From a virus (lineage: Duplodnaviria > Heunggongvirae > Uroviricota > Caudoviricetes), in the IMG/VR virus record IMGVR_UViG_2718218131_000003, positions 1 through 41,280 of that record: 41,280 bases of DNA; one strand, 5' to 3'. Within the stretch, counting starts at the first letter, position 1. The number at the start of each line of letters is the position of its first letter. Shown one piece after another: positions 4,433-25,826 of this stretch. The notes beneath the pieces are model-generated. The model was not told the DNA's origin. It ran no database searches and worked only from the letters and a program-made list of their open reading frames with translations. A program made the position numbers and the translations under genes.

Positions 4433-4490
4433 AAAAAGGGCGGCAGAGCAGTCACGGAGTAAAACTGATACCGCCAAACGTCACCAGAAA
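4433..4490 (-). ncRNA. dicF: DicF small RNA (ftsZ-targeting sRNA)
   Basis: Reverse complement of 4438..4490 reads TTTCTGGTGACGTTTGGCGGTATCAGTTTTACTCCGTGACTGCTCTGCCGCCC, followed by a T-tract (intrinsic terminator hairpin GGCGG...CCGCC); matches DicF as recalled; sits between the ydfA-side genes and dicB as in the dicB operon. Confidence 0.8.
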
Positions 4491-6008: not shown

Positions 6009-6236
6009 ATGTTTAAATCAGACGTAATTAATTTTTATGGGACGAAAGCCAAAGTAGCGAAAGCTGCTGGTGTTGATCCATCTGCTGTTTCTCAATGGGG
6101 GGAACTGGTTCCTGAAGGTCGCGCGATGCGCCTGCAAGAGGCATCCGGCGGGGAACTTCAGTACGACCCCAAAGTTTATGACGAATATCGTAAGGCAAAG
6201 CGGGCGGGGCGGTTGAACAATGAAAATCACCCCTGA
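6009..6236 (+). CDS. dicC: DicC-like (Cro-like) regulator
   Basis: 75-aa product from the ATG at 6009 with a GGAGG RBS 5 nt upstream; small basic HTH-type protein divergent from the repressor; resembles DicC as recalled. Confidence 0.7.
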   Translation: MFKSDVINFYGTKAKVAKAAGVDPSAVSQWGELVPEGRAMRLQEASGGELQYDPKVYDEYRKAKRAGRLNNENHP

Positions 6237-6771
6237 ACAGGTTTGTGAGGCTCTGGATGCCTGGGTATGTCGACCAGGAATGACACAGGAGCAGGCGACG
6301 ATATTAATCACGGAAGCATTCTGGGCTCTGAAAGAACGCCCGAACATCGATGTTCAACGCGTCACGTTTAATGATGGCGAGGTTGATCAACGGGCGCTGG
6401 GCGTTAACCGGGTGAAGATATTCGAACGCTGGAAAGCTATCGACACCAGGGATAAGCGGGAAAAATTCACGGCGCTGATTCCGGCAATTATGGAGGCTAT
6501 CCGGATCAGCGATTTCAGGTTGTATTGTGAAATTACTGACGGAAAAAGCATTACGTACATGATCGCCGGGTTAAACAAAGAATATGGCGATGTGGTGGAG
6601 TCCGGGCTGCTTTTTGCGGATCCATCTGTTGTGGAACGTGAGACTGACGAGCTTATAGAAAAAGCTATTGCTTTCAAGCATGCGTATCGTCAGCAATATC
6701 AATATTACTTTGCAGATAAACAAATGTCTGCCAGGGGTTCGTATGAGTATCGATGCACTACGATGGGCTAA
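6220..6771 (+). CDS. hypothetical regulatory protein (CII-like/YdaT-family, tentative)
   Basis: 183-aa ORF immediately after the Cro-like gene and overlapping it by 17 nt; position equivalent to cII/ydaT; no motif I can verify. Confidence 0.4.
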   Translation: MKITPEQVCEALDAWVCRPGMTQEQATILITEAFWALKERPNIDVQRVTFNDGEVDQRALGVNRVKIFERWKAIDTRDKREKFTALIPAIMEAIRISDFRLYCEITDGKSITYMIAGLNKEYGDVVESGLLFADPSVVERETDELIEKAIAFKHAYRQQYQYYFADKQMSARGSYEYRCTTMG

Positions 6772-11567: not shown

Positions 11568-11813
11568 ATTCATTACGATATGGGAATTCCCATATCGGGT
11601 AAAAACGGTTTGCGGGAAAAGGAGAGTTAAGTAGAATTGCTGCGGGTGCTTGAGGCTATCTGTCTCAGGCATGAACACCAAAAGGCAGATAGAGAAAAGC
11701 CCCAGTTAACATTACGCGTCCTGCAAGACGCTTAACATTAATCTGAGGCCCAATCTATGTCTCACAAATGTAGGTTAGCCTCTTACGTGCCGAAAGGCAA
11801 GGAGAAGCAGGCT

Positions 11814-11969
11814 ATGAAGCAGCAAAAGGCGATGTTAATCGCCCTGATCGTCATCTGTTTAACCGTCATAGTGACGGCACTGGTAACGAGGAAAGACCTC
11901 TGCGAGGTACGAATCCGAACCGGCCAGACGGAGGTTGCTGTCTTCACAGCTTACGAACCTGAGGAGTAA
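11814..11969 (+). CDS. hokD: Hok/Gef-family type I toxin (HokD/RelF-like)
   Basis: 51-aa product MKQQKAMLIALIVICLTVIVTALVTRKDLCEVRIRTGQTEVAVFTAYEPEE matches HokD (RelF) as recalled; AAGGAGAAG RBS upstream; the in-frame upstream extension from 11757 may be a mok-like leader. Confidence 0.85.
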   Translation: MKQQKAMLIALIVICLTVIVTALVTRKDLCEVRIRTGQTEVAVFTAYEPEE

Positions 11970-13855: not shown

Positions 13856-14221
13856 ATGACTGAACGCATAGAATTTGTTTTGCCTTACCCGCCAACGGTG
13901 AACACTTACTGGCGACGTCGTGGCAGCACATATTTTGTATCAAAAGCCGGTGAGCGTTATCGCCGTGATGTGGCGCTTATTGTTCGCCAGCAGCGGCTGA
14001 AATTAAACCTGTCCGGAAGGCTGGCGATAAAGATTATTGCAGAGCCACCGGATAAGCGTCGTCGTGACCTGGACAATATCCTGAAAGCACCACTGGATGC
14101 GCTGACGCATGCCGGACTTCTCATAGACGACGAGCAGTTTGATGAAATCAATATTGTGCGCGGTCAGCTCGTTCCTGGGGGGCGGCTGGGCGTGAAGATT
14201 TACAAAATTGAGAGTGAGTGA
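13856..14221 (+). CDS. rusA: Holliday junction resolvase RusA
   Basis: 121-aa product with RusA blocks (LPYPPTVNTYWRRRG...PDKRRRDLDNILKAPLDALTHAGLLIDDEQ) aligning to RusA as recalled. Confidence 0.85.
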   Translation: MTERIEFVLPYPPTVNTYWRRRGSTYFVSKAGERYRRDVALIVRQQRLKLNLSGRLAIKIIAEPPDKRRRDLDNILKAPLDALTHAGLLIDDEQFDEINIVRGQLVPGGRLGVKIYKIESE

Positions 14222-14772
14222 TCGTAAATATGATATATCCGGAAATTACAGGCAAAAGCGGCGAGCATTTACGTCTAAAAACGCTGGAAGCCGTCTGGAT
14301 CCAGGGGAAATTACGGATGTGGGGGCGTTGGTCGTATATAGGTGGTGGCAAACCAGGAAATATGTTCAATCAGTTGCTGACATCCAAAAAACTGACAAAA
14401 ACCGCGATCAATGAAGCCCTGCGTAGAATCAGGGAGTCAGGGATTGATAAACCAGAGCTGGAAGCATTCTTGCGAGAGATGATCGCTGGCAGACAGAAGA
14501 GCTGGTTGTCTCACTGTACTGATGCAGAGGCGTTACGCATTGATGGGGTGATAAGTAAAGCGCTTGCACGTTATCCTGGATTGATTGATATCCTGCGGCA
14601 AAGGTACGAAGGGCGGGGGATGAGTAAACGCAAAATGGCTGAATTGTTGAATGAGGTTCACCCTGAGTGGTGCTATGCAACATGCCGCAATCGTATAGAT
14701 ATGTGGCTGAGAATAGCTGAGTTTATTCTGTATCCACTGATGCGAGATGCATTTTCTTTTACTGACGCTTAG
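14218..14772 (+). CDS. late-gene antiterminator (Q-like), assigned mainly by position
   Basis: 184-aa ORF overlapping the rusA stop; followed by an intrinsic terminator and then the late region, the classic Q / late promoter / tR-prime arrangement; sequence-level assignment not verified. Confidence 0.5.
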   Translation: MIVNMIYPEITGKSGEHLRLKTLEAVWIQGKLRMWGRWSYIGGGKPGNMFNQLLTSKKLTKTAINEALRRIRESGIDKPELEAFLREMIAGRQKSWLSHCTDAEALRIDGVISKALARYPGLIDILRQRYEGRGMSKRKMAELLNEVHPEWCYATCRNRIDMWLRIAEFILYPLMRDAFSFTDA

Positions 14773-14939
14773 AATCTGGAGGGCGTTTGTTGTTGCACGA
14801 AGAGGATTTTTGGCTGGTAGTAAGGTTTGTGCAGTTTTAGAAAAAAAGCTTGTATTTTTAGCCATAAACTGTTTCAATCCAGCTACGCTTCGCAAAGCTG
14901 TACCGCGAGGCGAATAGCAGACATGGACACCTGAAAGAA

Positions 14940-14961
14940 CCCGCTTTATGCGGGTTTTTTT
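14940..14961 (+). terminator. intrinsic terminator (tR-prime-like) downstream of the Q-like gene
   Basis: Hairpin CCCGC-TTTAT-GCGGG followed by TTTTTTT (14955..14961). Confidence 0.65.
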
Positions 14962-15102
14962 ATGCCTGAAAAACGGCACAGAACATTAAACGCGCTGGTT
15001 GTTGTGAATACTGGTCTTTCAGCTTGCTGGCTTTTTCGACAAGAGGTATTGGTATGTCACGTTAACCGGAAAAGGGAAAAAGGCATACTAAAACAGCAGG
15101 AT

Positions 15103-15282
15103 ATGACCGAAACCGCCAGAGTGGTGTTTAATGAATTAAGCGTCACCGAACCGGCGACCGTCGGGGAAATTGCGCAGAATACTGACCTTTCACGCGAACG
15201 CTGCCAGTTAATACTGACTCAGCTTGTTATGGCGGGTCTGGCAGATTATCAGTTCGGTTGTTACAGACGCCTTCCGCAGTGA
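15103..15282 (+). CDS. possible small HTH protein (weak)
   Basis: 59-aa product from the internal ATG at 15103 (MTETARVVFNELSVTEPATVGEIAQNTDLSRERCQLILTQLVMAGL...); RBS spacing is poor; the ORF-track start at 14962 lies inside the terminator T-tract. Confidence 0.25.
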   Translation: MTETARVVFNELSVTEPATVGEIAQNTDLSRERCQLILTQLVMAGLADYQFGCYRRLPQ

Positions 15283-15432: not shown

Positions 15433-16481
15433 ATGGCTAATACTGTAAAAATATCCAGTTGTGAGTTAATCAACGCTGATTGCCTGGAATTTATCCAGAC
15501 CTTACCGGAAAATTCTGTCGATCTGATAGTCACAGACCCGCCATACTTTAAAGTGAAGCCCGAGGGCTGGGATAACCAGTGGAAGGGCGACGATGATTAC
15601 CTGAAATGGCTGGATCAGTGTCTGGCGCAATTCTGGCGGGTACTGAAACCTGCCGGAAGTCTCTACCTGTTCTGTGGTCATCGCCTGGCATCTGACACCG
15701 AAATCATGATGCGTGAGCGCTTTAATGTGCTGAACCACATTATCTGGGCGAAGCCGTCCGGACGCTGGAACGGGTGCAATAAGGAAAGTCTGCGGGCGTA
15801 TTTTCCGGCAACAGAGCGCATTCTGTTTGCAGAACATTATCAGGGACCGTATCGCCCGAAAGATGATGGCTATGTGGAGCAGGGGCGCGAGCTAAAACAG
15901 CACGTCATGGCCCCGCTGATTTCTTACTTTCGTGATGCGCGTAAATCACTGGGAATAACGTCAAAACAGATAGCGGAAGCCACCGGAAAGAAAAACATGG
16001 CTTCGCACTGGTTTGGTATCAGTCAGTGGCAGTTACCGAACGAGGGTGATTACAACAAATTGCAGGCGTTGTTTGCGCGTGTTGCGGCAGAAAAACATCA
16101 GCGCGGGGAACTGGAAAAGCCACACCACCAGCTGGTCAGCACATACAGTGAGCTGAACCGGCAGTATACGGAACTGCTGAGTGAATATAAAAATTTGCGG
16201 CGGTATTTCGGTGTGACGGCGCAGGTTCCGTACACCGATGTCTGGACGCATAAACCGGTGCAGTACTATCCAGGGAAACATCCGTGCGAAAAACCGGCAG
16301 AAATGCTGCAGCAGATAATCAACGCGAGCAGTCGTCCGGGAGACCTGGTTGCAGATTTTTTATGGGTTCAGGTTCAACGGTAAAAGCGGCGATGGCACTG
16401 GGGCGTTGTGCGATTGGTGTTGAGCTGGAGACCGGACGCTTTGAACAGACAGTCAGGGAAGTTCAGGATTTAATCGTTTGA
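15433..16481 (+). pseudogene. DNA N6-adenine methyltransferase (DPPY motif), split by a frameshift at a T6 tract
   Basis: ORF 15433..16383 carries DPPY (motif IV) and ends ...DLVADFLWVQVQR; ORF 16284..16481 in another frame carries FFMGSGSTVKAAMALG (motif I, FxGxG). Frames meet at TTTTTT 16356..16361; one additional T would give a continuous ~349-aa enzyme. Confidence 0.75.
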
Positions 16482-16530: not shown

Positions 16531-16606
16531 GGCCCTTTAGCTCAGTGGTGAGAGCGAGCGACTCATAATCGCCAGGTCGCTGGTTCAAATCCAGCAAGGG
16601 CCACCA
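16531..16606 (+). tRNA. tRNA with CAU anticodon, ileX-like (tRNA-Ile2, lysidine type) or Met
   Basis: 76 nt, acceptor stem GGCCCTT/AAGGGCC, anticodon loop CTCATAA, GTTCAAATC T-loop, 3' CCA; closely resembles E. coli ileX as recalled. Confidence 0.8.
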
Positions 16607-16607
16607 A

Positions 16608-16684
16608 CCGCCACTAGCTCATCAGGAAAGAGCGTCAACCCTTTAAGTTGAGTGTGCGAGGTTCGAGTCCCCGGTGGCGGTCCA
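16608..16684 (+). tRNA. tRNA, atypical; anticodon loop CCTTTAA (UUU/Lys if canonical), isotype uncertain
   Basis: 77 nt; acceptor CCGCCAC/GTGGCGG, D-stem GCTC/GAGC, anticodon stem TCAAC/GTTGA, T-loop TTCGAGT, 3' CCA; position 33 is C rather than the near-universal U and C1-G72 starts the acceptor stem. Confidence 0.5.
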
Positions 16685-16686
16685 GT

Positions 16687-16762
<76 letters not shown>

Positions 16763-16765
16763 TAT

Positions 16766-16840
<75 letters not shown>

Positions 16841-21941: not shown

Positions 21942-23443
21942 TGGCAATTATTGATGATGTGATCGGCGTGTTTTCCCCCGGGTGGAAAGCAGCCAGACTG
22001 CGTTCAAGGGCGTTAATCATGGCCTATGAGGCGGTGAAACCGACCCGGACACATAAAGCCCGGCGGGAAAATCGCTCTGCTGATCAGCTCAGTAAATACG
22101 GTGCGGTTTCCCTGCGGGAGCAGGCCCGTTTTCTGGATATCAATCATGACCTGGTGATTGGTGTGTTTGACAAGCTGGAAGAGCGGGTGATTGGTGCCAG
22201 GGGAATTATTGTGGAGCCTCAGCCATTACGAAAAAACGGGGAAATGGCGGCTGAGCTGGCTGCGGATATCCGCCGTTTGTGGGCTGAATGGTCCGTGAGT
22301 CCGGATGTGACAGGGCAGTATACCCGTCCTGTGCTTGAACGTTTACTGCTGCGGACCTGGCTGCGGGATGGTGAAGTGTTTGCGCAGATGGTCAGTGGTG
22401 CGGGAAACGGTCTGGAACGGACGGCGGGAGTGCCATTCTGGCTTGAGGCGATGGAGCCGGATTTTGTTCCCATGCGCACTGATGAATCCGCCGGACTGAA
22501 TCAGGGGGTTTTTCTTGATGAGTGGGGAAGACCGAAAAAATATCTGGTTTATAAAAATTATCCGGTCAGCGGCCGGCAGAGTGATACGAAAGAAATCGCT
22601 GCCGGAAAAATGATCCACCTGAAGTTCACTCGTCGTCTGCATCAGACGCGAGGCTCATCCATGTTATCGGGGGTGCTGATGCGGATCAGTGCCCTTAAGG
22701 AGTATGAGGATGCGGAACTGACAGCGGCGCGTATTGCTGCGGCGCTGGGACTGTATATCCGTAAAGGTGACGGACAGGACTATGAAGATCCGGGGATCAA
22801 AGAGACTGAGCGGGAAGTCCATATCACCCCGGGTATTATTTATGACGATTTGCGCAAGGGCGAGGATATCGGCATGGTCAAATCTGACCGTCCCAATCCC
22901 AACCTTGAAACTTTCCGCAACGGCCAGTTGCGTGCAGTGGCAGCAGGCAGTCGTCTGAGTTTTTCCAGTGCGGCGCGTAACTATAACGGCACCTACAGCG
23001 CCCAGCGGCAGGAGCTGGTCGAGTCCACGGATGGTTACCTGATCCTGCAGGACTGTTTTATTGGCGCGGTAACCCGCCCGGTGTACCGGACATGGCTGAA
23101 TATGGTGGTTGCGGCAGGTCTGCTGAAAATTCCGGCGGATGTGGAGATGAAAACGCTATATAACGCGACGTATTCCGGTCCGGTGATGCCGTGGATCGAC
23201 CCGGTTAAGGAAGCTGAAGCCTGGAGAATTCAGATCCGGGGTGGTGCAGCGACAGAATCTGACTGGGTGCGTGCCGGTGGGCGCAATCCGGATGAGGTCA
23301 AACGTCGCCGCAAGGCTGAAATTGATGAAAACAGCAGACTGGGGCTGGTCTTTGATACTGACCCCGTCAACGACAAAGGAGGCAACAGTGCCGGAACTGA
23401 ACGACAGTATCAGCGCGACACCGAAAGCCAGCATGAAGAATAA
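21941..23443 (+). CDS. portal protein
   Basis: 500-aa ORF immediately after W and before the protease/capsid gene; size and position of the lambda-family portal. Confidence 0.7.
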   Translation: MAIIDDVIGVFSPGWKAARLRSRALIMAYEAVKPTRTHKARRENRSADQLSKYGAVSLREQARFLDINHDLVIGVFDKLEERVIGARGIIVEPQPLRKNGEMAAELAADIRRLWAEWSVSPDVTGQYTRPVLERLLLRTWLRDGEVFAQMVSGAGNGLERTAGVPFWLEAMEPDFVPMRTDESAGLNQGVFLDEWGRPKKYLVYKNYPVSGRQSDTKEIAAGKMIHLKFTRRLHQTRGSSMLSGVLMRISALKEYEDAELTAARIAAALGLYIRKGDGQDYEDPGIKETEREVHITPGIIYDDLRKGEDIGMVKSDRPNPNLETFRNGQLRAVAAGSRLSFSSAARNYNGTYSAQRQELVESTDGYLILQDCFIGAVTRPVYRTWLNMVVAAGLLKIPADVEMKTLYNATYSGPVMPWIDPVKEAEAWRIQIRGGAATESDWVRAGGRNPDEVKRRRKAEIDENSRLGLVFDTDPVNDKGGNSAGTERQYQRDTESQHEE

Positions 23444-25412
23444 ATCCTGGTTCAGGATGCAAGCTGGGGGGCCGGGTGACGCGGATATTTATATTTATGA
23501 CGAGATTGGTTTCTGGGGAGTTACCGCGAAGCAGTTTGTCAGCGAACTGAATGCACTGGGTGATATCACCCACATTAATCTCCATATCAATTCACCGGGT
23601 GGCGATGTCTTTGAAGGCATCGCCATTTTTAATGCCCTGAAAAATCAGGGGGCGACCATTACCGTGTATGTGGATGGCGTTGCCGCCTCGATGGCATCTG
23701 TGATTGCGATGGCCGGTGATACGGTCATTATGCCGGAAAATGCCTTCATGATGATCCATAAGCCATGGGGATTCAGTGGCGGGGATGCTGAGGATATGCG
23801 CAGTTATGCCGATTTGCTGGATAAAGTCGAATCGGTACTGTTGCCAGCCTATGCGCAGAAAACCGGAAAAACCACCGATGAAATTGCCGCCATGCTGGCG
23901 GATGAAACCTGGATGTCCGGTGCCGAATGTCTGGCACACGGATTTGCTGACCAGGTGACACCCGCTGTTGAGGCAATGGCATGTATTCAGTCAAAACGTA
24001 CAGAGGAATTTAAAAAGATGCCGGAATCCATCCGAAACATGATTACTCCGCCACGCAACAGTGCCCCGCGTGATACCACAGTGACAATCCCTGCACCGGC
24101 GGTAACAGAACCATCACCGGTACCGGCAGTGTCTGATGAGGCGACCATTCGCGCCCGCGTTATGGCAGAACAGAAAGCCCGCATGTCAGGCATTAACGAT
24201 CTGTTTGCCATGTTCGGCGGTCGCTATCAGACGCTTCAGGCACAGTGCGTGGCTGATCCTGACTGTTCGCTGGAAATGGCCCGTGAACGACTGCTGAATG
24301 AAATGGGCAAGGAGTCCTCGCCGACCAACAAAAATACACCGGCCCATATTTATGCCGGAAACGGCAATTTTGTGGGGGACGGGATCCGCCAGGCGATGCT
24401 GGCCCGTGCCGGATTTGAAAATGTCGAGAAGGATAACGCCTATAACGGGATGACCCTGCGTGAATGGGCTCGCATGTCACTGACGGAGCGCGGTATTGGG
24501 GTGGCCAGTTATAACCCCATGCAGATGGTCGGGCTGGCGCTGACGCACAGCACCTCTGATTTTGGCAATATTCTGCTGGATGTGTCGAACAAGGGGCTGA
24601 TCCAGGGCTGGGAGGAATCAGAAGAAACCTTCCAGAAGTGGACCCGTAAGGGACGCCTGTCAGACTTCAAAACAGCGTATCGCGTGGGGATGGGCGGTTT
24701 TGGTTCTCTGCGCCAGGTTCGTGAGGGGGCGGAGTATAAATACATCACCACCTCAGATCGCAAGGAGACCATTGCACTGGCCACTTACGGGGAGATTTTC
24801 TCCATCACCCGCCAGGCCATTATCAATGATGATCTGAATATGCTGGTGGACGTGCCGATGAAGATGGGGCGTGCGGCGAAGGCAACGATTGGTGACCTGG
24901 TCTACAAGGTGCTGACGGATAACCCGAAACTGTCCGACGGTAAGGCGCTGTTCCATGCCGATCACAAAAATATTGCCACCGGGGGGATCTCCGTTTCCGG
25001 ACTGGATGCGGCCCGTCAGATGATGCGCCTGCAGAAAGAAGGCGATCGTGCCCTGAATATCCGTCCGGCCTTTATGCTGGTACCGGTGGCACTGGAGACG
25101 GTGGCGAACCAGACCATCAAATCGGCCAGTGTGAAAGGGGCGGATGCAAACGCCGGTGTCATTAACCCTATCCAGAACTTTGCTGAGGTGATTGCAGAAG
25201 CGCGTCTTGATGCGGCAGACCCGAAAACCTGGTATCTGGCGGCGGCACAGGGCACTGACACCATTGAAGTGGCCTGGCTGGATGGTGTGGACACGCCATA
25301 CATTGATCAGCAGGAAGGTTTCACCACTGACGGCATTGCCACAAAAATCCGTATTGATGCCGGAGTGGCACCACTTGACTGGCGCGGGCTGGTGCGTTCG
25401 TCGGTGGCCTGA
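23433..25412 (+). CDS. prohead protease (ClpP/S49-like) fused to major capsid protein
   Basis: ATG at 23433 overlapping the portal stop; N-terminal ClpP-like domain (INSPGGDVFEGIAIFNAL...VDGVAASMASVIAMAGD...MMIHKP), central Pro/Ala-rich linker, C-terminal ~350 aa capsid-like region. Confidence 0.65.
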   Translation: MKNKSWFRMQAGGPGDADIYIYDEIGFWGVTAKQFVSELNALGDITHINLHINSPGGDVFEGIAIFNALKNQGATITVYVDGVAASMASVIAMAGDTVIMPENAFMMIHKPWGFSGGDAEDMRSYADLLDKVESVLLPAYAQKTGKTTDEIAAMLADETWMSGAECLAHGFADQVTPAVEAMACIQSKRTEEFKKMPESIRNMITPPRNSAPRDTTVTIPAPAVTEPSPVPAVSDEATIRARVMAEQKARMSGINDLFAMFGGRYQTLQAQCVADPDCSLEMARERLLNEMGKESSPTNKNTPAHIYAGNGNFVGDGIRQAMLARAGFENVEKDNAYNGMTLREWARMSLTERGIGVASYNPMQMVGLALTHSTSDFGNILLDVSNKGLIQGWEESEETFQKWTRKGRLSDFKTAYRVGMGGFGSLRQVREGAEYKYITTSDRKETIALATYGEIFSITRQAIINDDLNMLVDVPMKMGRAAKATIGDLVYKVLTDNPKLSDGKALFHADHKNIATGGISVSGLDAARQMMRLQKEGDRALNIRPAFMLVPVALETVANQTIKSASVKGADANAGVINPIQNFAEVIAEARLDAADPKTWYLAAAQGTDTIEVAWLDGVDTPYIDQQEGFTTDGIATKIRIDAGVAPLDWRGLVRSSVA

Positions 25413-25434: not shown

Positions 25435-25453
25435 GCCCGAAAGGGCTTTTTTT
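25435..25453 (+). terminator. intrinsic terminator downstream of the capsid gene
   Basis: Hairpin GCCC-GAAA-GGGC followed by TTTTTTT; a second hairpin AGCCCC-ACAG-GGGCT at 25457..25471. Confidence 0.5.
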
Positions 25454-25499
25454 ATGCCTGAAAAACAGCCCCACAGGGGCTGTCCGGAGAAACAGCATT

Positions 25500-25826
25500 A
25501 TGGCGAAAAATTTTGTACAGGACGGTACCACCATTGAACTGGTGAATGCCGGAGATCAGACCATCCTGAGCGGTGCTGCGGTGGTGGTCGGCAGTATGGT
25601 GGCCGTGGCCATTACCGATATTCCTGCCGGTGAGGCCGGTGACGGTTTTGCCGAAGGCGTGTTCCTGCTGCCCAAACAGTCTGCTGACGACATTCAGTCC
25701 GGCGCGGTGGTTTATCTGAAGGACGGGGTTGTGCAGTTGGCTGCCGACGGTGCGGTGGCCGCGGGGGTAGCCTGGGAAAATGCTCCTGCAAACAGCGCCA
25801 CTGTGGCGGTAAAAATCAATGTCTGA
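25500..25826 (+). CDS. head-associated protein (DUF2190-like, possible decoration/stabilisation protein)
   Basis: 108-aa Gly/Ala/Val-rich ORF directly after the capsid gene; assignment by position and composition. Confidence 0.45.
   Translation: MAKNFVQDGTTIELVNAGDQTILSGAAVVVGSMVAVAITDIPAGEAGDGFAEGVFLLPKQSADDIQSGAVVYLKDGVVQLAADGAVAAGVAWENAPANSATVAVKINV

Follow-up and report, generated by a model that had tools for sequence, protein, structure and literature searches.

In phage lambda, the terminator tR', a strong hairpin followed by a T-run, lies a short distance past gene Q and precedes the late genes; Q acts at a promoter-proximal pause, not at terminators, and the terminators of the Q-dependent late operon are read through. 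A second described site of this architecture is the post-capsid position of mEp043 and mEp460, annotated in both phages as a 'rho-independent terminator', and the Escherichia coli chromosome carries intrinsic terminators of the same general form after rpsT, rplQ, rpsI, and rpoC. We compared with these systems a 20-nt sequence, TTTTTTTATGCCTGAAAAAC, that occurs twice in a lambdoid E. coli prophage (IMG/VR record IMGVR_UViG_2718218131_000003, positions 1 to 41,280; this whole stretch of 41,280 nt is called the window), once past a Q-family gene (locus 1) and once past a capsid gene (locus 2). Each copy consists of the T7 tract and the next 13 nt (the tail) of a Rho-independent terminator. The reading that we prefer, with somewhat less than even confidence, is that the 20-mer is a common terminator-distal sequence and that both sites carry a common allele of one conserved tail class, roughly T6-9-[AG]T[GA][CT]C[TC][GA]AAA; the two window copies would then be identical because both are a common allele of the same constrained tail.

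The two copies, at 14955-14974 and 25447-25466, lie on the plus strand and share the tail ATGCCTGAAAAAC after T7. The initial annotation had reported this identity, and it is exact: the window holds these two copies only, and a search of its whole length, on either strand and with up to three mismatches allowed, found no further match. The repeat can be extended to 26 nt with two mismatches (24/26 identical; GGGTTTTTTTATGCCTGAAAAACGGC versus GGCTTTTTTTATGCCTGAAAAACAGC), the 3 nt flanking the 20-mer on each side being mostly alike, and this pair is the longest near-exact dispersed repeat of the window. None of 100 dinucleotide-preserving shuffles of the window gave two matches to the 20-mer (mean 0.02). 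This test overstates the surprise, because T7 and A5 make part of the motif low in complexity, and terminator tails are themselves non-random. The original remark that such a match is unlikely by chance needs this caveat, but chance does not account for the match. Every sequence-level test identifies each site as a predicted intrinsic terminator, as had been proposed: both hairpins lie 3' of a gene on the same strand, T7 abuts the stem directly at both loci, and the hairpins themselves differ (CCCGC-TTTAT-GCGGG versus GCCC-GAAA-GGGC).

At locus 1, the hairpin (14932-14962, plus strand; core CCCGC at 14940-14944, loop TTTAT, GCGGG at 14950-14954) sits 167 nt past the stop codon of a Q-family late antiterminator gene of 184 aa (14218-14772, plus strand; Pfam DUF1133, E = 3e-101; Phage_antitermQ, 27.6 bits against a cutoff of 26), which a RusA gene (13856-14221) immediately precedes. 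The core can be extended to 13 bp by A-tract/U-tract pairing of the flanks, and the predicted fold has an energy of −17.5 kcal/mol (z = −6.5), with none of 200 shuffles equally stable. This terminator is the positional equivalent of lambda tR', whose tail, T6-ATATCTGCACAAC (T6-ATATCTG...), matches the motif tail at 9 of 13 positions; unlike in lambda, the Q protein of the window is of the DUF1133 type, unrelated in sequence to lambda Q, and the hairpin is a different one. The module downstream begins with a small TrmB-like gene (15103-15282, plus strand; a weak Pfam TrmB match of 20.4 bits), followed by a DNA methylase gene (15433-16383, plus strand; Pfam N6_N4_Mtase). It is homologous to the Q-to-stx region of phiP27 and the Stx2 phages, which have the same gene order between Q and stx and the same annotation of the TrmB-like and methylase genes. 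Relatives of locus 1 were collected through the TrmB-like protein, blind to the motif, and the 80 loci fetched reduced to 41 distinct sequences, nearly all of which read T6-9 and then RTG[CTA]C[CT][GA]AAA. The window's own tail, letter for letter, ranks among the more frequent alleles of this set.

A scan of 14773-14939 for a pR' promoter or pause element passed no sigma-70-like site, and inspection gave the same result; relatives with a different Q module and a lambda-like pR' show TAAATT...AACGAT. In some of these loci (L594 and similar), the lambda-type pR' −10 and pause element are followed within ~10 nt by a further TTTTATGCCTGA, which lies inside the initially transcribed region, ~45 nt before the locus's own post-Q hairpin.

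At locus 2, the hairpin GCCC-GAAA-GGGC (25435-25446, plus strand; a 4-bp all-GC stem with a GAAA loop; −7.9 kcal/mol) lies 23 nt past the stop codon of a ClpP-protease/scaffold/major-capsid fusion gene (23241-25412, plus strand; Pfam CLP_protease and Phage_capsid_4) and 33 nt ahead of a cement/decoration gene (25500-25826, plus strand; Pfam Phage_cement_2). A second predicted hairpin of 8 bp, ACAGCCCC-ACA-GGGGCTGT (25465-25483, plus strand), abuts the ribosome-binding site GGAG of the decoration gene (25486-25489, plus strand). The terminator of mEp043 and mEp460 resembles this one in position, GCCC-loop-GGGC stem, T7, tail, second hairpin, Shine-Dalgarno sequence, and decoration gene; the tails after T7 are ATACCTGAAACC in mEp043 and GTACCTGAAATC in mEp460, and the window lineage, to which VT1-Sakai and CP-1639 also belong, carries ATGCCTGAAAAAC, one base longer.

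The comparison at locus 2 took in 14 head-module lineages. VT1-Sakai, CP-1639, and several Stx2 phages are 98-100% identical to the window across this region, and the distant head modules show ~70% identity in the neighbouring DNA, with decoration proteins 47-63% identical to that of the window. The tail at the equivalent site is ACGTCTGAAATC in Fels-1, ATACCTGAAATC in both Gifsy-2 and Klebsiella Kp4865-4, ATATCTAAAATC in Providencia PSTCR8lys, and ATCCCTGAA in Citrobacter Chris1, so that enterobacterial head modules keep the pattern GCCC-N4-GGGC-T7-AT[GAC][CT]CT[GA]AA[AT].C. The pattern was unchanged in a second set of 80 loci fetched through the decoration protein, again blind to the motif, which comprised 39 distinct intergenic sequences. 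The spacer between stop codon and hairpin is unalignable between lineages, the loops of the first hairpin vary, and the arms of the second hairpin change by compensatory substitutions; the GCCC/GGGC stem, T7, and tail are nearly unchanged, and the stem is invariant in all enterobacterial relatives examined. Since spacer and loops diverge while stem, T7, and tail persist, the tail is under constraint at locus 2. Conservation in relatives had been named by the initial annotation as a check on the motif, and the motif or close variants of it are kept at both positions.

The 20-mer recurs well beyond these two loci. We found it, exact, in at least 118 viral contigs and at least 10 unrelated contexts; two permuted controls, with the central heptamer shuffled and T7 and A5C kept, gave no viral matches each. 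The viral contexts with unrelated hairpins include P4-like elements near the integrase gene, the portal-scaffold gap of another kind of phage, a position past a repressor gene, and several others. Species-representative bacterial genomes contain 119 exact matches in 96 independent contexts (~60% in Gammaproteobacteria), and nearly all of them stand directly 3' of G+C-rich hairpins that differ from one another. An upstream open reading frame (ORF) lies on the same strand in 75 of the 88 bacterial contexts with an identifiable one, and the upstream genes include rpsI (Yersinia, Colwellia), rpsT (Reinekea, Pseudoalteromonas), efp, porins, and trpS. Approximately 12 of the 119 genomic matches are true MPEK.. 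gene starts, unrelated chance cases. Because the motif is found after the housekeeping-gene terminators of many Gammaproteobacteria, it is not a phage-specific shared regulator.

The E. coli K-12 chromosome (NC_000913.3) offers some of the nearest described counterparts. In 240 kb of it, six of eight sites with a hairpin and T7 continue with AT, and the four strong terminators named above have T7, AT[AG], and then G/C-rich bases: rpsT (~20770, minus strand) has the tail ATGCCTGCTG, which shares ATGCCTG with the motif; rplQ (3439581, minus strand) has ATACCCGTAG, beginning ATACCCG; rpsI (3377762, minus strand) has ATAGCTAAAATC, identical at 10 of 12 positions to the phage consensus ATACCTGAAATC; and rpoC (4189614, plus strand) has ATGGGGGGAG, beginning ATGGGGG. 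They differ from the window sites in being chromosomal, in having no read-through by Q-modified polymerase, and in diverging from the motif after 5-7 nt.

More generally, AT[AG] and then G/C come after the T7 of terminators far in excess of what base composition would give. For the sequence after T7, Markov and position-specific models predict 6-21 exact matches in the bacterial collection, in which 119 were seen. Of ~80 tails at unselected hairpin-plus-T-run sites in the loci of these matches, 7 begin with RTGCC, and the most frequent hexamer is CCTGAA at offset 3 (11 observed, ~0.4 expected). For the metagenomic pattern T7-A.GC.T.-A5C, the four ATGCCT. variants make up 30% among the matches listed, against 6% expected, and each of these variants follows a different hairpin; once the E. 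coli prophage copies are set aside, the exact motif forms a peak no sharper than its neighbours.

Enterobacterial lambdoid phages keep the tail past both the Q gene, in the tR' position, and the capsid gene, and strong housekeeping-gene terminators of Gammaproteobacteria show it again. In the mechanism that we propose, U7-A-U would give a 9-nt RNA:DNA hybrid of A/U pairs only, directly after the hairpin, and the next bases (G/A, then C/G-rich) would set up a stiff fork downstream and, at −1/+1, a step from pyrimidine to purine. The release position would fall 8-9 nt after the stem, with the G-rich end of the stem at −10/−11, a layout resembling the multipartite elemental pause signal, which may detain RNA polymerase at the point of release and so give the hairpin time to form. 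Where Q-modified polymerase reads through, the tail bases of the transcript would make up an unpaired, A/U-rich stretch that links two hairpins. The elemental pause loses strength ~5-fold when the downstream fork junction is substituted, and likewise when the downstream DNA is (PMC6336406). The sequences themselves show the terminator anatomy, the conservation at two loci, and the wide recurrence; that the tail acts on pausing or termination is our inference.

Several observations weigh against this proposal. The termination rationale covers T7-AT-R-S-S (S, G or C); it leaves unexplained the strong conservation of CTGAAA in phage contexts, as well as the continuation TGAA in four of the seven unselected tails that start RTGCC. 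Nor does a termination mechanism explain why the GCCC/GGGC stem is conserved in the phage context; at locus 2 this stem is conserved in sequence without covariation, which could point to a sequence-specific binding partner. There are also exceptions: a Pseudomonas phage, LESphi2, has the head module without the tail, phiP27 carries the deviant tail GCGCCCAAAAAGC at locus 1, and most K-12 terminators with T5-6 carry other tails. The analogy with pausing rests in part on the consensus letters of the pause, G−10, Y−1, and G+1. Finally, part of the exact-match excess may reflect composition: by a rough estimate, the probability of ATGCC given a T7 terminator is ~8%, which leads to ~46 expected hairpin-associated matches against ~75-80 observed. 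With expected and observed counts thus within ~2-fold of each other, the recurrence of the exact 20-mer is mostly convergence on T7-AT-R-(G/C)(G/C) plus an A-rich tail; a residual preference for ..CTGAA remains beyond that convergence.

A bolder form of the idea, for which we would claim only a minor share of the probability, makes the tail a distinct sequence-specific 'terminator-distal box', T7-AT[GA][CT]CTGAAA, to which the capsid context adds the invariant GCCC/GGGC stem, and not a by-product of composition or descent. Such a box would be shared by late-operon terminators of enterobacterial lambdoid phages, lambda tR', P4-like elements, and strong gammaproteobacterial housekeeping terminators. 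Its reader might be RNA polymerase, for which it would enhance pausing or release from within the downstream duplex, or else a conserved host factor, for example RNase E. We know of no terminator-distal consensus of this type that has been described as a component of intrinsic terminators.

The identity of the two copies might alternatively record history and not function, if the sequence is a recombination linker at a lambdoid module boundary or the product of short-patch gene conversion between the two sites. We consider this unlikely, though it is the strongest of the competing explanations, and most of what speaks for it comes from locus 1. In all 23 related phage records, phiP27 and Stx2 phages included, similarity to the window begins no earlier than 14950, a position within the 3' arm of the terminator hairpin; the 24th of the 24 matches is confined to ~14814-14914. 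At least seven unrelated upstream Q/hairpin modules, each with its own hairpin, join one conserved downstream module; the window-type hairpin is seen in combination with three tail alleles, and two distinct upstream modules share the tail GTGCCCGAAAAGC. This reassortment of hairpins and tails indicates crossovers at the boundary between hairpin and T-run, and on these alignments the locus 1 terminator is a mosaic breakpoint, resembling the linker sequences of lambdoid mosaic boundaries in that it coincides with a module junction. Most relatives also have a canonical Chi, GCTGGTGG, 33-40 nt past the T-run (in L594, for example), in conserved non-coding DNA and in an orientation that would stimulate RecBCD exchange towards the terminator/Q junction; the window has a degenerate Chi with one mismatch, GCTGGTTG (14994-15001, plus strand). 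The match of 24 out of 26 nt, flanks included, between the window copies fits a transfer between sites as well.

Locus 2 behaves differently. There the hairpin, the tail, the second hairpin, and both flanking genes diverge together, with no reassortment, and for that reason this site is not a mosaic joint; the joint raised as a possibility by the initial annotation is thus borne out at locus 1 and not at locus 2. Each context moreover keeps its own consensus across deep divergence (ATACCTGAAATC on the capsid side, ATGCCYGAAAA on the Q side), which argues for long-term maintenance at each site and not for one recent transfer. Hybrid joints, with a post-Q hairpin on a capsid-side downstream region or the reverse, are absent from the 118 viral and 10 metagenomic exact matches sampled, and recombination cannot account for the same tail at the rpsI, rpsT, and efp terminators of distant bacteria. 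A sequence that is also shared outside phages is, in this too, unlike the known lambdoid linkers.

It is less probable still that the tail serves as an RNA element of the read-through late transcript, in which U7 and the A/U-rich linker would be an entry or cleavage site for RNase E or a binding site for S1 or another protein. Such an element would set off an upstream mRNA protected by its hairpin (the capsid message or a short leader past Q) from a downstream mRNA whose 5' end has a protective hairpin of its own. Both copies do lie in the Q-dependent late operon, and the conservation of CTGAAA is not explained by termination alone. In the predicted fold, the locus 2 tail is a 12-13-nt unpaired linker between the conserved first hairpin and the covarying second one that abuts the Shine-Dalgarno sequence, and the sequence thus has the A/U-rich single strand flanked by stem-loops that an RNase E site needs. 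RNase E prefers RN|WUU, which GGC|UUU and GAA|AUC resemble.

At locus 1, a possible small second stem-loop, UGCC-UGAAAAAC-GGCA (14963-14978, plus strand), appears after the T-run in the minimum-free-energy fold. The tail supplies its 5' arm and loop; locus 2 does not permit this stem-loop. Of 37 distinct relatives, 28 have a stem of four or more base pairs at this site, whereas shuffling the 3' half gives an expectation of 14.6, a per-sequence test that gives the stem-loop modest support. The variants seen in relatives include GUGCC...GGCAC, GUGCC...GGUAC, and GUACC...GGUGC and suggest that it is maintained. Counting pairs in a MAFFT alignment was uninformative, because the non-homologous terminator hairpins misalign; the genuine terminator helix itself was only 56% paired. 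Telling against an RNA element are the presence of the tail at operon-end terminators of housekeeping genes, with 30 of the 119 matches facing a convergent gene, where a processing site would have no obvious use; the window allele AUGCCUGAAAAAC, which has no U after the U7 tract; and the lack of a match to any RNA family at either locus.

Antitermination was the other regulatory role considered in the initial annotation; a site of this kind common to both terminators, nut/boxB-like or Q-related, is very improbable. The motif contains the 9-mer CCUGAAAAA, which in lambda nutR boxB, GCCCUGAAAAAGGGC, makes up the loop and the 3' side of the stem, and the locus 1 tail can form UGCCU-GAAAA-A(C)GGCA. 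This is a resemblance only: unlike lambda nut, the motif sites lack boxA and a consistent stem and stand in the wrong operon. At locus 1 this hairpin forms only with a bulge, and locus 2 does not permit it, so that no boxB-like hairpin is common to the two sites; relatives vary the loop freely, no Rfam family supports the assignment, a search of the window's early region found no boxB-type hairpins with a GNRA-like pentaloop, and the motif also occurs at housekeeping terminators. The top of the locus 1 stem-loop (CCU-GAAAA-A) likewise resembles lambda boxB. Coincidence between two A/T-rich tails without shared constraint or history, for which the partly low-complexity motif and the commonness of T7 in terminators might speak, has a negligible chance of being right, given the shuffles, the permuted controls (0 viral matches versus at least 118), and above all the conservation of the tail at both positions across deep divergence, which excludes it.

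Other identities of the 20-mer were considered and rejected. A promoter scan and inspection found no sigma-70-like site spanning either copy, which disposes of a promoter. A REP/MITE-like dispersed element was discarded on the grounds that hairpins and downstream flanks are unrelated across contexts, with nothing conserved beyond position 20; across the bacterial contexts, too, no flank conservation was found past that position. A shared neighbouring gene was likewise dismissed, as all-against-all BLASTP of the flanking ORFs linked only orthologous contexts. As to coding, an ORF at locus 1 (14962-15282, 106 aa) opens at the ATG of the motif, but its N-terminal extension is spurious: the real gene starts at 15103, and phiP27 lacks the motif ATG. 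The ORF from the motif at locus 2 has 27 aa, and relatives have ATA, GTA, or ACG in place of its start; the minus-strand reading '...VFQA*' is not a conserved ORF end. A search of the literature for the motif string returned nothing relevant.

Two of the wider contexts show further detail. In four P4-like elements, the 20-mer follows an unrelated hairpin, GCGGCTCC-ATTTC-GGGGCCGC; the 3' end of a P4-type integrase gene is ~700 nt away, and a cluster of primase-like genes lies alongside. In Pseudoalteromonas shioyasakiensis (locus L166, reverse strand, ~6100-6470), a tRNA-Leu gene is followed by three tandem units of ~119 nt, each repeating the 3' end of the tRNA together with a hairpin and T7-ATGCCTGAAAA; these units look like stacked attachment sites of integrative elements. 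Within the window, Rfam gave no family at gathering threshold at either locus, the best sub-threshold scores being AgrB with 27.1 bits (threshold 40) and isrK with 21.6 bits (threshold 50). In the Salmonella Gifsy-1 prophage, isrK is an RNA that binds Hfq; its match here covers 14887-14960 on the plus strand, the region just before and including the locus 1 terminator, and may reflect the terminator alone. Elsewhere the window encodes the sok antitoxin RNA (11644-11819, plus strand; 120 bits), DicF RNA (4438-4489, minus strand; 77 bits), and four tRNA genes (16531-16837, plus strand), the typical cargo of Stx-type lambdoid prophages.

For annotation, these results place two intrinsic terminators of an ordinary kind in a lambdoid prophage, and the one at locus 1 doubles as a module junction. 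Bases past the U-tract are commonly given no weight; here a phage head module keeps them across deep divergence, and they recur at ribosomal-protein and other strong terminators. If it is true that they tune pausing or release, the prediction of terminators and the design of synthetic ones should include them, and if the tail is an RNA processing site, it would help explain differential expression within the Q-antiterminated late operons of these phages.

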